Positions 1 to 4,495 are shown, counted from the stretch's first letter. The stretch is DNA of 4,675 bases from a virus (IMGVR_UViG_2663763286_000001:1-4675), one strand, 5' to 3'. A program made the numbers and translations. The notes: generated by a model from the letters alone, not told the origin.

Positions 1-161
1 TAACGTGGGTGGACTGGTATAACAATCGACGATTGCTGGAAAGGCTGGGCCATATTCCTCCGGCAGAAGCAGAAAAAGCTTATTATGCTTCCATCGGAAA
101 TAATGATCTGGCAGCCTGAGTTCACAGATAAAATACTCTCCAGGAAACCCGGGGCGGTTCA
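1..161 (+). mobile_element. IS3-family insertion sequence (IS629/IS1203-like), right end; element continues beyond the window start
   Basis: Transposase reading frame ends at 119, followed by a terminal repeat 122..161 whose reverse complement reads TGAACCGCCCCGGGTTTCCTGGAGAG..., matching from memory the IS629/IS3411-type terminal inverted repeat. The element ends ...GGTTCA (CA-3'), as IS3-family ends do. The left end is outside the window, so the repeat pair cannot be confirmed. Confidence 0.6.
3..119 (+). CDS. Transposase OrfB C-terminal fragment (rve/DDE integrase-core type), 5'-truncated by the window edge
   Basis: Frame 3 translates to TWVDWYNNRRLLERLGHIPPAEAEKAYYASIGNNDLAA*. The YNxRR...LG...PAE pattern is typical of the C-terminus of rve-domain transposases, and a terminal inverted repeat follows directly. 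Confidence 0.55.
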   Translation, partial: TWVDWYNNRRLLERLGHIPPAEAEKAYYASIGNNDLAA

Positions 162-217: not shown

Positions 218-721
218 TCACTTCACCTCCTGCGGCGGTTCCGGTAGCGGCATCCAGTGGGTTACCTCTTTGAGATACAGGTCTTCGCCATCACCGTCAT
301 CCCAAGTGGGATTGCCATCATTAAACCAGTCGCCATATACGCCGACCTGAGTGTTGGGGATGTTTGGCGGGTAGTTGTTTTTAAAGTCAGCCGCTAACAC
401 ATAGCATTGTCGCTCTCCCATTTCTGGCATTTGCTCACTACAGCTTATCCAACCATCCGGAGTTACCGGAACTGGCGGCGCGGCATATAGTGGTTTAGGT
501 GATATCTCCGCACGTTTTGCGTATGCTTCAACTGTGTCAGGATTAAACAGGATTATGTTTTCGCCGCATTCCCACGCTATTGGTTTTGCTTCCAGCGATG
601 CCAGAGCAATTCGTGCCAGTTCTTCCGCTTCTTCTGCTGGCAGTACAACGTTGCTACCAGGTCCGTATGTTTCGCGCCACTGCTTGATTGTCAGTAGTCG
701 CTCTTTGGTTATAGTGGTCAT
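218..721 (-). CDS. Phage DUF551-domain protein (167 aa)
   Basis: Intact ORF ending in a double stop (TGATGA). The C-terminal half (PDGWISCSEQMPE...GVYGDWFNDGNPTWDDGDGE...THWMPLPEPP) fits my recollection of DUF551 proteins of lambdoid prophages. Its ATG overlaps the upstream stop as ATGA. Confidence 0.8.
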   Translation of the reverse strand: MTTITKERLLTIKQWRETYGPGSNVVLPAEEAEELARIALASLEAKPIAWECGENIILFNPDTVEAYAKRAEISPKPLYAAPPVPVTPDGWISCSEQMPEMGERQCYVLAADFKNNYPPNIPNTQVGVYGDWFNDGNPTWDDGDGEDLYLKEVTHWMPLPEPPQEVK

Positions 722-927
722 TTGTTAACACTCAAAACTTTATGCCCGGGCGCAAAAGCACGTGTTTTGTCTTTGCTTATTCGCCAGCCATCCTTACGCG
801 CCTCTTTTGCACAACCAGCCCATGACGTACCGATATACTCTCCGAAGTCTGGCACTTGATATACACCTTCCGTACACTGGCGGCAGTCACAATAGAGATG
901 CATGGTGTAACTTGCGGCAATAGCCAT
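718..927 (-). CDS. Small Cys-containing hypothetical protein (69 aa; MAIAASYTMHLYCDCRQCTEG...)
   Basis: ATG at 927 is preceded by AAGGAGAG with a 4-nt spacer. Cys at positions 13, 15, 18 and 39 (CxCxxC...C). Stop overlaps the DUF551 start (ATGA). The 93-aa version in the track is an upstream extension with no ribosome-binding site that would overlap the neighbouring gene. Confidence 0.65.
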   Translation of the reverse strand: MAIAASYTMHLYCDCRQCTEGVYQVPDFGEYIGTSWAGCAKEARKDGWRISKDKTRAFAPGHKVLSVNK

Positions 928-928
928 A

Positions 929-1117
929 TCACTCTCCTTTAGTACGCAAGTGGTTTTTCCAGCGGTTTTGCGCCGCGCTGGGCTTTTTGCAAAAACCACA
1001 ATCCATCATCCCGTAATGTTTCATTAACCCCATCCGTCGGTTGCTGAGTCTCACCCACTGCCAGACGCCAGGAGCGTTTCTACGAACTAACAGAATCTTT
1101 GCTTTACGGTTTTTCAT
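929..1117 (-). CDS. Small basic hypothetical protein with a CxxC motif (62 aa; MKNRKAKILLVRR...)
   Basis: ATG at 1117 is preceded by CAGGAGAG with a 7-nt spacer. Its stop lies 1 nt before the next gene's ATG. The frame stays open upstream to 1276 (115-aa version adding a second CxxC), but that extension has no start codon with usable Shine-Dalgarno spacing. Confidence 0.6.
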   Translation of the reverse strand: MKNRKAKILLVRRNAPGVWQWVRLSNRRMGLMKHYGMMDCGFCKKPSAAQNRWKNHLRTKGE

Positions 1118-1269
1118 CGTTTTGCTCTCCTGCGTCTCTTTGCTGCTCGTCGTGCCGCTGCAATACCGGTATGGCGGCGCTTTGGTGTCGGGATGATGTT
1201 CTTTGCAATTAGCGCAGAAGCCCAAAAACGAGTCGGATACGGTAACAAGCCGAGACATGCCACACGCAT
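1114..1269 (-). CDS. Possible Arg-rich 51-aa ORF (MRVACLGLLPYPTRFW...RRAAKRRRRAKR), alternative frame to the extension of the 929..1117 gene
   Basis: Best ribosome-binding site in the window (AGGAGGTGA, 6-nt spacer, ATG). Start overlaps the upstream stop (TAATG) and stop overlaps the downstream start (ATGA). The low-complexity Arg/Ala-rich C-terminus and rare Arg codons argue against it being a real protein. Confidence 0.3.
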   Translation of the reverse strand: MRVACLGLLPYPTRFWASALIAKNIIPTPKRRHTGIAAARRAAKRRRRAKR

Positions 1270-1718
1270 TACTCACCTCCTTTGATGCGAATGCCAGCGG
1301 CGCGTAATGCGTGTTCTAGGTCAATCAGGTAAAGCCAACTGCCATTTTCTTTAGGTATCATGACTTGTCGCTCATCTGCATTTATCGGGTGTCCATATCG
1401 AAGGTCGTAGAGAGTCGGTAATTGAACTTCCCGCGCTTCCAGTTCAGCAATACGCTTGCACCCATCAGAGATAACTCCCTCGTAATACTCGCGCTGCTCG
1501 TTGAGTTTTGATTTTGTCTCCTCAAGCTCAACGCGCAGCTTCCCTACCGTTAGCGCAATATCCTCGTTCTCCTGGTCGCGGCGGTAGAGGCTACAATAGC
1601 TGCTGAAGCATGCACTTGTTGGATATTCACCAACAATGCCGCGACAAAAATCATCTTCTTCACTTGTCAGCTCCTTTGCGAATCTGTTCCGCCCATTCTT
1701 CAAGGGATTTCTCCGCAT
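1269..1718 (-). CDS. Hypothetical phage protein (about 144-161 aa depending on start; ...WLYLIDLEHALRAAGIRIKGGE)
   Basis: Long minus-strand ORF. The only canonical in-frame start codons with meaningful length lie inside the upstream gene: ATG at 1754, ATG at 1718 (GGTGA only 2 nt upstream), TTG at 1703 (GGAGA with a 6-nt spacer). The reported start is provisional. Possibly Ea22-like by position; no motif recognised. Confidence 0.6.
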   Translation of the reverse strand: MRRNPLKNGRNRFAKELTSEEDDFCRGIVGEYPTSACFSSYCSLYRRDQENEDIALTVGKLRVELEETKSKLNEQREYYEGVISDGCKRIAELEAREVQLPTLYDLRYGHPINADERQVMIPKENGSWLYLIDLEHALRAAGIRIKGGE

Positions 1719-2274
1719 ATTCACCGGACAGGCCATCAATCGGGTACGGTTCATTAGCCAACTCTTCTTTCGCTGACAGAATCATGCGCGTAACGTCGAA
1801 AACTTCACGCAAAGACTTATTGATAAATCCGTGATTGAACGCAGCAGCAAGACGGCTGGCGGTATAGTTAATACCCTCGTTGCGTGCTTCCGCACGAATT
1901 TCAGCCAGAAAAGCATCGGTAGCTGGAGTTTCGCTGTGGTGTAGGGCATCGTTGATAATCATTGCAGCAACTCCGGCCTGCCCTGCATCCGTGACCGACA
2001 CATGATCAAGAGTTACAGCTATTGCGTGTTTCAGCCCGGCGTTCTCCGCCGCCAGCGCTGAAAACTTCTCGTGTGCCAACTTAACAGCCGAATCAGCCTG
2101 CTTAATTGACTCAATCGCTTTCTGCTGGTCTTCGGACAGAGCCGAAATCTTGGCCTCCGCTTCAGCAAATTTACGCACAAGATATTCAGCGTTTGTTTCG
2201 TTAACCTTTAAATCACATGGGATGCATTTACCTTTCAGAAATCCATCCATCTCAATTAGTGTCATTTGTTTCAT
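1660..2274 (-). CDS. Hypothetical mildly acidic, Ala/Glu-rich phage protein (204 aa from [12 protein letters not shown]...)
   Basis: Long ORF whose ATG at 2274 overlaps the upstream stop (ATGA). Composition suggests helical/coiled-coil regions (inference). Alternative starts are GTG at 2292 and ATG at 2265. Confidence 0.7.
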
Positions 2275-2445: not shown

Positions 2446-2742
2446 TCAGTTATTACTGATAGCGCCATAGCGTGAGCGGTAATTACGCAGGCGCGGGTCG
2501 ATATATTCAGGGAATTTGTCTATTGTCGCTTTTCGCAACGGTCTCATTGCTGTTTCGTTTGTTCGGTCCTTCTCCTGTTTTAGCGCGAGTTGTATATCGC
2601 GTCGGTACATCCGTTCTGCTTTTGTTTCTGGTGTCAGAGCAAGAAACGCGTCGAAATTGTTTTTGATATTTCCCAGCACCTCCGCCTTGGAGCTACCGGA
2701 GCAGTTGCGCGGGTCATCCGCACCATACAGAGGCGCTGGCAT
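2446..2742 (-). CDS. Hypothetical phage protein (98 aa; [51 protein letters not shown]...)
   Basis: ORF beginning 23 nt downstream of the DUF669 stop, with a weak AAGG about 9-10 nt upstream. Same strand and tight spacing as its neighbours. No recognisable motif. Confidence 0.65.
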
Positions 2743-2765
2743 AATGGGAGCCTTATTTTCAGTAA

Positions 2766-3353
2766 TCAGAAAGGAGGGTAATCGTTCTGGCTGTAACCAT
2801 AATCATCTGCATGATTATGGCTTACGTTTTTAGAGCGATTGTCTTTATCTTTGAGGCTGGCAACCATGTTGGCGATAGTTTCTGGTTGCTTGCCTTCTGC
2901 CTTTTCTTTAAGGGTTTGACCTGTTTGTGCAATAAACGGGATGCGTATTTCCATCTGGTAGCTGTCTGCGCCAGTCTTTTTGTTTGTGGTTAATACTTTC
3001 TGGAGCACTAACCCGATTTTCTTTCCATGAAATTCAGGTGCAACAAATTTACTGGCGGAAACCATATGTTGCGTTAATTGTCCAATCCCGGCACACCCCA
3101 TCATGGCGTGAACGACATTTGCGCCAAATTTGTTTTCCGTGCCGTCATTTTTCTGAACACAGACGCTAAGATACTGGATTTTACGTCCGTCGTCGGATTC
3201 TCCAGAAAACTCAATAAATTTGGCTCCTTTTTCTGATTGCTTGAGTTCTGCTTCAGTAATGGTAATTATGTAAGCGCCAGTTTCGTTAATAAAACCACCT
3301 TGCCCTGCGGTCAGTGCTGCTTCTTCGTTATAAGTAAAAATTACGTTGCTCAT
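2766..3353 (-). CDS. DUF669-like phage protein (195 aa), the usual partner of Sak4-type recombinases; possible ssDNA-binding role
   Basis: Start overlaps the Sak4 stop (ATGA), with AAGGA upstream. Size, position directly after a Sak4-like ATPase, and N-terminal sequence (MSNVIFTYNEEAALTAGQGGFINETGAYIITITEAEL...) fit my recollection of DUF669. The domain assignment is not verified. Confidence 0.7.
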   Translation of the reverse strand: MSNVIFTYNEEAALTAGQGGFINETGAYIITITEAELKQSEKGAKFIEFSGESDDGRKIQYLSVCVQKNDGTENKFGANVVHAMMGCAGIGQLTQHMVSASKFVAPEFHGKKIGLVLQKVLTTNKKTGADSYQMEIRIPFIAQTGQTLKEKAEGKQPETIANMVASLKDKDNRSKNVSHNHADDYGYSQNDYPPF

Positions 3354-4030
3354 GCGGCGTTTTCCTTAATTTGATGAACATTATTGATGCCGTAGTAATC
3401 ACAAACAGTGGCATCGACGAAAGAGAGATCGTTATCAATCTCATTGGAATCAAACATTCCCATTGGGGATTTAACAGTGTCTGCACCGTTGTTTTTCGTG
3501 GTGAAAAAGAACTGGTCATCGCGGGTAAGAGTGCGAAGAACTATAGTAAACATGCCTTCGACAGTGATTTTCTCGTCCAGCATTTTGCCGATAGTCTTCA
3601 TTTTCACGCGCCCCATAGGGGTTTCTTCGGTGTGCGCAAGAAAATAGACTCTCAGGTCATCAGGCGCATCCTGTGCAGCCTTAATGACCTCCCATGCGTG
3701 GCGGCCTATCTCAGTAAATTTATCAAACGATTTTTCTTCTGAGCGGCGCATAAACTCATTGCTCATCACATACTGGAAGTCATCAACAATAACGATTCTT
3801 TTCCCGTATTCGTGAGCACGCTTAATTACGGCAACTATTACGCCCCATTTGTCAGTGGTAACTACGGTTCCTTTTTTTGCTCTGGCATCCCATGCAAGCC
3901 AGTCTTTTGATTTAAATGGTAGCGGCTTGCCTATTGGTTTTATAAGTATTGCTTCCTCTGGATTGATATTTCTCATGCTGGTTGATTTTCCGGTGCCAGA
4001 CTCACCGAGTATTAATATCGCAGTTCCCAT
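3350..4030 (-). CDS. Sak4-like core-only RecA-family ATPase (AAA_24-type), 226 aa; phage recombination/ssDNA-annealing module
   Basis: Walker A motif GESGTGKST at residues 9-17 and Walker B-like RIVIVDD. The roughly 220-aa size is typical of phage Sak4. GGTGA lies 3 nt upstream of the ATG. It sits where lambda carries bet/exo. Confidence 0.85.
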   Translation of the reverse strand: MGTAILILGESGTGKSTSMRNINPEEAILIKPIGKPLPFKSKDWLAWDARAKKGTVVTTDKWGVIVAVIKRAHEYGKRIVIVDDFQYVMSNEFMRRSEEKSFDKFTEIGRHAWEVIKAAQDAPDDLRVYFLAHTEETPMGRVKMKTIGKMLDEKITVEGMFTIVLRTLTRDDQFFFTTKNNGADTVKSPMGMFDSNEIDNDLSFVDATVCDYYGINNVHQIKENAA

Positions 4031-4337: not shown

Positions 4338-4470
4338 TTTTGGGAACTCCTGGCTGATTAAGTACGTCGATGAGTCGCTTCCATCCGTCACGTAATTTAC
4401 GGGTGATTCGTTCAAGTAAAGATTCGGAAGGGCAGCCAGCAACAGGCCACCCTGCAATGGCATATTGCAT
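4330..4470 (-). CDS. cIII: CIII, FtsH (HflB) protease inhibitor that stabilises CII, 46 aa
   Basis: Translation MQYAIAGWPVAGCPSESLLERITRKLRDGWKRLIDVLNQPGVPKNG matches lambda CIII residues 1-46 with one substitution (I35V), from memory. The ribosome-binding region TAAATAAGGAGCACACCATG matches the lambda cIII leader. The track's longer ORF is an upstream extension that runs through the terminator hairpins. Confidence 0.9.
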   Translation of the reverse strand: MQYAIAGWPVAGCPSESLLERITRKLRDGWKRLIDVLNQPGVPKNG

Positions 4471-4495
4471 GGTGTGCTCCTTATTTATACATAAC
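4471..4495 (-). promoter_or_regulatory. cIII translation-initiation leader (Shine-Dalgarno AGGAG plus upstream AU-rich tract)
   Basis: Minus-strand sequence UUCGUUAUGUAUAAAUAAGGAGCACACC-AUG is essentially the lambda cIII leader. In lambda this region is known to be subject to RNase III and alternative-structure control; applying that here is by homology. Confidence 0.5.

Follow-up and report, generated by a model that had tools for sequence, protein, structure and literature searches.

The interval under study, within a window of 4,675 nucleotides of viral DNA, belongs to a lambdoid prophage of the Stx type and lies downstream of ea22, in the variable part of the early-left (pL, 'exo-xis') arm. 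The exo-xis region comprises a conserved block from orf60a to ea22 that is followed by a variable gene set (PMC8614690). All genes of the run are encoded on the minus strand, and their products include a Sak4-like ATPase, an SSB-like DUF669 protein, the anti-RecBCD protein Abc2, a DUF2737 protein, a member of PHROG 614 and an Ead/Ea22-like protein. The lambdoid pL-operon context was confirmed by a match of the cIII thermoregulator (Rfam Lambda_thermo; 88.5 bits, E = 2e-21) at 4425-4483 on the minus strand. At the other end, the 3′ end of an IS3-family transposase gene was found at 9-119 (plus strand) within 1-217; the terminal repeat of this element ends near 165, and the prophage arm is cut there. 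The recombination module (2446-4030, minus strand) is formed here by the Sak4-like ATPase, the SSB-like DUF669 protein and Abc2, where 933W and Stx2-86 have Exo/Bet/Gam; one downstream small-gene block is thus combined with different recombination modules.

Directly downstream of the Ead/Ea22-like gene lie three small genes on the minus strand: an Arg-rich gene of 51 aa (1114-1269; Shine-Dalgarno (SD) sequence AAGGAGG at 1276-1282), a gene of 62 aa (929-1117; AGGAG at 1127-1131, 9-nt spacer) and a gene of 69 aa (718-927; AAGGAG at 934-939, 6-nt spacer). The preliminary description had listed the latter two as a coupled pair with good SD sequences, and both ORFs are indeed present on the minus strand with a single nucleotide (928) between the stop of one and the start of the next, the AGGAG of the 62-aa ORF and the AAGGAG of the 69-aa ORF being read directly from the sequence. 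It had overlooked the third coupled gene immediately upstream, and it had put the pair at the distal end of the operon, whereas a DUF551-domain gene (218-721, minus strand; Pfam PF04448, E = 3e-20) follows the 69-aa gene with an ATGA overlap and is itself followed by a remnant ORF cut by the IS. This remnant, which starts at 216 on the minus strand, consists of 19 codons, is small and hydrophobic (MNWPEAFTAVGVAIAVAFI) and has its stop codon supplied by the IS end. In intact relatives such as 933W, several further genes are located between this point and xis/int.

The four stop/start junctions of the run are TAATG (1267-1271), ATGA (1114-1117), TGAtATG (925-931) and ATGA (718-721); each is thus an overlap or a gap of at most 1 nt, with the SD sequence inside the upstream gene. 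Because the SD sequence of the next gene sits in their final codons, several genes here end in K-G-E or G-G-E. The ATG of the 51-aa gene overlaps the TAA of the Ead/Ea22-like gene, and its TGA overlaps the ATG of the 62-aa gene. No terminator-like site was found inside the gene run, and promoter-like or terminator-like sites within 1-1800 were no commoner than chance: the single promoter-like site is on the opposite strand and the single terminator-like site lies within the IS end. The run would be transcribed from pL as part of the early-left operon, with termination-reinitiation at each junction carrying translation from the Ead/Ea22-like gene through the 51-, 62- and 69-aa genes to the DUF551 gene.

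The Ead/Ea22-like gene (1269-1754, minus strand; Pfam PF13935, E = 2.7e-10, match in the C-terminal part) is the usual left neighbour of the Arg-rich gene, and the junction between them is kept across loci. Its protein ends in AAGIRIKGGE, in the codons that carry the SD sequence of the Arg-rich gene. The profile match is confined to residues 59-106, and the ORF overlaps the upstream PHROG 614 ORF (1660-2292) by 95 nt; the true start of the Ead/Ea22-like ORF, or a mosaic joint, lies somewhere within 1580-1754. A 37-aa ORF (1550-1663) begins at the stop of the PHROG 614 gene.

Around the small genes, 601 nt are 96% identical to 933W, VT2-Sakai and Stx2-86, where they are located between ea22 and xis. 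Among 5,426 complete Escherichia coli genomes, 903 carry window positions 700-1300, with 345 of the 1,141 matching places being on plasmids. The 69-aa cassette was further found in the genomes of phages RCS47 (115 kb) and D6 (91 kb), which we take to be P1-like phage-plasmids. From the plasmid matches and these two phages, the module therefore moves between lambdoid prophages and phage-plasmids. The cassette is absent from Φ24B, the phage of the exo-xis experiments.

The 51-aa Arg-rich protein (MRVACLGLLPYPTRFW...KRRHTGIAAARRAAKRRRRAKR; pI 12.0) consists of a hydrophobic N-terminal part followed by KRRHTGIAAARRAAKRRRRAKR. The gene was left uncalled by PGAP, as an empty gap, and is absent from the 933W record. 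Nevertheless, its frame is open in divergent variants and the peptide is kept, with AAARRAA, for example, being preserved through four synonymous changes; pN/pS is 0.36 in its own frame versus 1.64 and 0.88 in the other two. Of the distinct sequences, 26 start with ATG and 9 with GTG, the length among relatives is 51-58 aa, and 73 protein clusters were predicted. A conserved and selected Arg-rich frame makes three coupled small genes here, not two. Frameshifted Arg-rich variants ending in GEQNDEKP (P0311-P0313) occur in many genomes, P0313 alone on 95 contigs, and frameshifted variants of the 62-aa ORF (P0100 and P0105) in a few; neither gene is therefore indispensable.

At four related loci (L122, L167, L172 and L176), a GC-rich hairpin closed by a GAAA loop (GCCGCCC-GAAA-GGGCGGT) takes the place of the Arg-rich gene, ~60 nt upstream of the start of the gene of the MKNRKAK family, to which the 62-aa gene belongs. 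After the hairpin comes a 13-aa mini-ORF, MAELIGEQNDEKP (22 aa when an upstream start is used), whose stop is the +2-frame TAA inside this MKNRKAK gene.

Gene calls for the 62- and 69-aa ORFs differ among reference records. In E. coli genomes, PGAP calls exactly the 62- and 69-aa genes (WP_000797281.1 and WP_000951706.1, both 'hypothetical protein'). The 933W record lists L0068, a 95-aa form of the 69-aa gene extended upstream to a GTG, and lacks the 62-aa gene; RefSeq Stx2-86 conversely extends the 62-aa gene to 155 aa, as gp46, and lacks the 69-aa gene. The conflict was settled by comparison of about 240 related loci. A long in-frame gene (115 aa here; 155 aa as Stx2-86 gp46 or PHROG 12350) of which the 62-aa ORF is just the C-terminal part would accommodate the frame being open from 1276 in the window, the RefSeq annotation of the 155-aa protein in Stx2-86 and the match to PHROG 12350 (E = 9e-82). 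However, where relatives carry a 21-nt insertion, this frame is closed (...CKATCPDG, then stop) ahead of the 62-aa start, while start and SD sequence are invariant in every context, even where the upstream sequence is quite different. Upstream of the 62-aa ATG, substitutions outside the Arg-rich frame are mostly non-synonymous, and the pN/pS values of 0.88 and 1.64 thus leave the extension frame without a coding signal. As PGAP also prefers the 62-aa form over those of 115 or 155 aa, the long gene is very improbable. The same holds for a start of the 69-aa gene at GTG 999 (93 aa here, 95 aa in L0068), inside the 3′ part of the 62-aa gene: no stop interrupts the frame from that GTG onwards and the 933W GenBank record carries the long form, yet distant members of the family start at M-I/A-x-x-G/S-Y without any extension, a well-spaced AAGGAG precedes the ATG at 927, and PGAP picks 69 aa. 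Moreover, a mosaic boundary coincides with that ATG, so the GTG 'extension' is part of a different module. This alternative start is therefore hardly credible.

The 62-aa protein belongs to PHROG 1380 (E = 4.5e-40; residues 1-62 versus 1-62 of the 62-position profile), a family unannotated for function, and is here referred to as type A of the 'MKNRKAK' family. The family, which comes in several types between 58 and 64 aa long, was found almost exclusively in temperate enterobacterial phages within the annotated phage collection. Its kept parts are MKNRKAK-x-L at the basic N terminus, the central motif [LIV]SN[RH][RK] and, at the likewise basic C terminus, K[PR][ST]A[AS]QNR[WR]K. Two alternative tails exist: NHLRTKGE and a stop followed by one base and an ATG, or KKGYAVR and a stop overlapping a further MKNRKAK gene. 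A 58-aa paralog often stands in tandem before the 62-aa gene with an ATGA overlap, and homologue chimeras were also seen, namely fusions to DUF4014 (P0082 and P0104) and a tandem duplication (P0108).

Basic character had been ascribed to both small proteins; this describes the 62-aa protein well (pI 11.6, net charge ~ +14), and the 69-aa protein hardly (pI 8.8). Likewise, the placing of Cys and His was correct in both (C13, C15, C18 and C39 in the 69-aa protein; CxxC at 40-43 with H34 and H56 in the 62-aa protein), while conservation of the cysteines among homologues holds for the 69-aa family, with a revised ligand set, and fails for the 62-aa family. C40, C43 and H34 are replaced in most MKNRKAK types, and H56 is kept only within one C-terminal type. 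The match of the 62-aa protein to Pfam PF12171 (zf-C2H2_jaz) reached 13.4 bits against a cut-off of 22.6 (E = 0.09), and no zinc-finger Pfam match was found in the five other MKNRKAK types tested. Its AlphaFold2 model is poor (pLDDT 63) and shows a small variable sheet flanked on either side by basic helices. Zinc binding by the 62-aa protein was thus rejected, because its Cys and His residues are unconserved, the zinc-finger match is subthreshold and the model is poor.

The 69-aa protein represents PHROG 926 (E = 5.5e-36; residues 1-68 versus 1-68 of the 69-position profile), which is likewise unannotated for function and consists of 398 cluster representatives from temperate and virulent enterobacterial phages. 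The gene has a pN/pS of 0.19 in frame versus 1.44 and 0.73 in the other frames; judged by substitution patterns, each of the three small ORFs is under purifying selection in its own frame. In the family alignment of 73 members, C13 is kept in 73 of 73, position 18 is Cys or His in 66 (C in 63, H in 3) and position 62 is His or Cys in 70 (H in 56, C in 14). The fourth ligand position is a near-exclusive swap, with only C15 in 50 members, only C59 in 20, both in 3 and neither in 0. C39 is a Cys in merely 37 of the 73. Family conservation thus gives good support to a four-ligand metal site formed here by C13 (889-891), C15 (883-885), C18 (874-876) and H62 (742-744), all on the minus strand. The zinc site envisaged earlier stands in its conserved Cys/His set but not in its membership, as C39 is excluded and H62 takes its place. 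The 69-aa protein is probably a zinc-binding mini-protein.

Its predicted fold is ββαββ, in which zinc would staple the β1-β2 knuckle of the mini-domain to the C-terminal tail. The model is moderately confident, and statements on fold are soft for this reason and because the 62-aa model is poor. No solved structure was matched by the ββαββ model in the fold search. Two marginal candidates were raised in the PDB sequence and profile searches: fibronectin type II repeats of MMP-2/9 ('GTSW.gC..EgR.DGwR', E 0.2-0.8) and a plant ZF-HD homeodomain (E 0.02); both were judged chance, because the predicted fold is unlike either. The fibronectin-like stretch is YIGTSWAGCAKEARKDGWR (residues 31-49; window 781-837), a weak and probably fortuitous resemblance, and a 697-aa protein of fibronectin type II-like repeats (P0140) also scored in the profile search.

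Across the related loci, at least ten unrelated genes were found behind the MKNRKAK ORF in other phages, almost without exception at GGAGAGTGAT directly followed by ATG. Among 135 distinct contexts after the ORF, the next gene is the 69-aa gene in ~40 (behind an ORF of the 62- or 63-aa type), the gene of a 171-aa protein in 26 and a tandem MKNRKAK gene joined by an ATGA overlap in 47, and at least eight other unrelated ORFs were also seen. The recurrent slot junction, which ends in AAAGGAGAGTGAT and continues with the ATG, is nearly always identical. In the window, the 3′ junction AAGGAGAGTGATATG (925-939, minus strand) contains the SD sequence within the last codons (K-G-E), the TGA at 929-931, the spacer at 928 and the cargo ATG at 925-927; a swappable slot has its left boundary here. 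When the window was compared with a locus that has the 171-aa gene in the slot (L025), homology ran over 1283-923 and resumed over 721-587. The 69-aa gene is thus a discrete mosaic cassette whose limits coincide with its start and stop codons. Unrelated genes thus alternate between a left flank, the MKNRKAK gene, and a conserved right flank, the DUF551 gene, as in an accessory region.

At the 5′ junction (ATGAAAAACCGTAA; 1104-1117, minus strand), the start codon (1115-1117) is accompanied by a TGA in the +1 frame (1114-1116) and a TAA in the +2 frame (1104-1106), so upstream genes entering in either alternative frame terminate at most 12 nt from the MKNRKAK start. The +2-frame TAA is fixed because Arg4 is invariably CGT (76 of 76 distinct sequences), while other Arg codons vary. 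Both stops are in use: among 113 distinct upstream contexts, an ORF of at least 40 aa ends at the TGA in 92, and Ead/Ea22-like ORFs of 155-219 aa end at the +2 TAA in 12. The Arg-rich and MKNRKAK genes constitute a conserved block ahead of the swappable slot. The block was also seen twice in one phage, ~1 kb apart and with different cargo each (L025, 724-2706; L034, 1655-2189).

From codon invariance and the comparison of contexts, we infer a dual role of the MKNRKAK gene ends, which would encode protein and at the same time serve as a standard translation-coupling and recombination joint for any cargo gene. In a bolder form of this idea, the Arg-rich and MKNRKAK genes would together constitute a dedicated 'docking module' in lambdoid and P1-like phages, with gene ends as universal joints: given stops in both alternative frames at the 5′ end, and an SD sequence and stop before the cargo ATG, cargo could be swapped by homologous recombination and translated at once. 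The module would then provide an integrase-free, integron-like platform for accessory cassettes (possibly counter-defence) of which the 69-aa gene is one; we consider this rather doubtful.

Taken as a whole, the locus is best explained as three coupled, selected early accessory genes, with the 69-aa gene being a zinc-type cassette in a shuffled slot behind the Arg-rich/MKNRKAK block (probability roughly 0.6). The structural and evolutionary statements within it, on gene structure, selection, ligand pattern and cassette boundaries, are held with high confidence. Weighed against it was the proposal that the coupled 62- and 69-aa genes encode two zinc-binding regulators working as a pair, in analogy to lambda Ea8.5. 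The two genes are adjacent, 1 nt apart and each with an SD sequence, they follow one another in those ~40 of the 135 contexts, and the 69-aa protein does carry a conserved metal-ligand set. However, the candidate ligands of the 62-aa protein (C40, C43 and H34) are not conserved, and neither protein is related to Ea8.5. In addition, 69-aa family members are stand-alone proteins that are widespread without an MKNRKAK neighbour, including in virulent phages; around distant members no constant neighbour was found, with DnaB, NinB, methyltransferase, xis/int and dCMP deaminase (in PhaxI) among those seen. With at least ten unrelated genes taking the place behind the 62-aa ORF elsewhere, the two are no conserved pair and adjoin through gene shuffling, which renders concerted action as regulators quite improbable.

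A different challenge to the three-gene reading is that the 62- and 51-aa ORFs are incidental and that the DNA is a non-coding recombination linker or a structured RNA. It would account for the extreme ends of the 62-aa ORF being far better conserved than its middle, for the position of the block at mosaic joints, and for the existence of frameshifted variants of both ORFs; the constant CGT of Arg4 is likewise what constraint at the nucleotide level would produce. Yet invariant residues of the 62-aa family are encoded by differing codons (R55 by CGC, AGG or AGA; also S28, R30, R31 and L9), dN/dS between its types is 0.15-0.8 and mostly 0.2-0.5, and the contrast in pN/pS between the Arg-rich frame and the two others is that of a coding sequence. 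Moreover, no Rfam match was found within 700-1300, and the RNA folds no more stably than shuffled sequence (z = -1.0 and +0.6). A linker or structured RNA is thus unlikely, and the reading as three selected accessory genes is retained.

As for function, scans with Pfam, NCBIfam and PADLOC returned nothing above threshold for the three small proteins and the 73 members of the 69-aa family. The 69-aa protein would play an early accessory role in which it binds a protein of the host or of a competitor. Protein binding is the most likely activity for it, albeit a tentative one, and was put forward because the protein is merely mildly basic and sits in an accessory hotspot; such hotspots hold counter-defence and host-modifying genes (bioRxiv 10.1101/2023.04.06.535777). 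The 51- and 62-aa proteins, at a pI of about 12, would bind nucleic acid, which is their most likely activity and is suggested with similar caution.

Several known systems resemble parts of this locus. Lambda Ea8.5, whose gene lies between ea22 and xis in the pL operon, is a small early protein that binds zinc (PMC8614690) and has a hybrid homeodomain/zinc-finger fold (PDB 2M7A). The analogy that had been drawn with it stands for position only, as the small genes lie directly downstream of the Ead/Ea22-like gene here, in 933W and in Stx2-86, like ea8.5 in lambda. A non-essential accessory status of the small genes here would be a further likeness. Homology is not seen, with hhalign probabilities of 1.0% for the 69-aa family and 0.2% for the 62-aa family, and the fold differs: no Ea8.5 entry (2M7A) was among the fold-search matches listed, and the hybrid homeodomain/zinc-finger fold was not encountered. 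Lambda Orf73, a TraR/DksA-type C4 zinc finger of the exo-xis region, is likewise a small zinc-binding protein from the same operon of Stx phages (PMC8614690, PMC9239242). In contrast to it, the 69-aa protein has the ligand spacing CxCxxC...H and a β-rich predicted fold, and none of the 73 members of its family matches the Pfam zinc-finger or TraR/DksA models. Protein G B1 and protein L type ββαββ domains are also among the nearest systems.

With regard to gene arrangement, short conserved sequences before variable genes are found in T4-type PeSLs, mobile promoter/stem-loop cassettes that supply both homology for shuffling and an expression signal, and in class 1 integrons the short leader ORF at attI drives cassette translation. 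Unlike in these two, the conserved unit here is a protein-coding gene under purifying selection, with no promoter hairpin or integrase-dependent site; unlike attI, the MKNRKAK unit has no recombinase associated with it. Phage accessory regions (Silas et al., bioRxiv 10.1101/2023.04.06.535777) likewise have unrelated small genes taking turns between flanks that stay conserved, the difference being that the left flank here is a small conserved gene that supplies the SD sequence and stop for the cargo. None of the three proteins appears in the available portion of the supplementary files of the Silas et al. screens (bioRxiv 10.1101/2023.04.06.535777). Similarly, the accessible part of the literature, including supplements of the Sakai RIBOseq study and of two accessory-gene screens, makes no mention of them.

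The families are already known as unnamed PHROGs and RefSeq entries, and are small early accessory proteins of temperate phages. The locus is ordinary phage accessory 'dark matter' with a neat junction architecture, and no new kind of system is indicated. In the reference Stx-phage genomes, the calls of 933W L0068 and Stx2-86 gp46 are corrected by the analysis, and the 51-aa gene, conserved but overlooked by PGAP, is added. A mini-protein family that more than 400 sequenced phages carry, temperate as well as virulent, receives a precise ligand assignment (C13/C15/C18/H62) together with the C15-to-C59 swap. Finally, the small-gene block and its swappable slot offer a nucleotide-resolution view of how the variable part of the exo-xis region is shuffled yet still expressed in Shiga-toxin phages.
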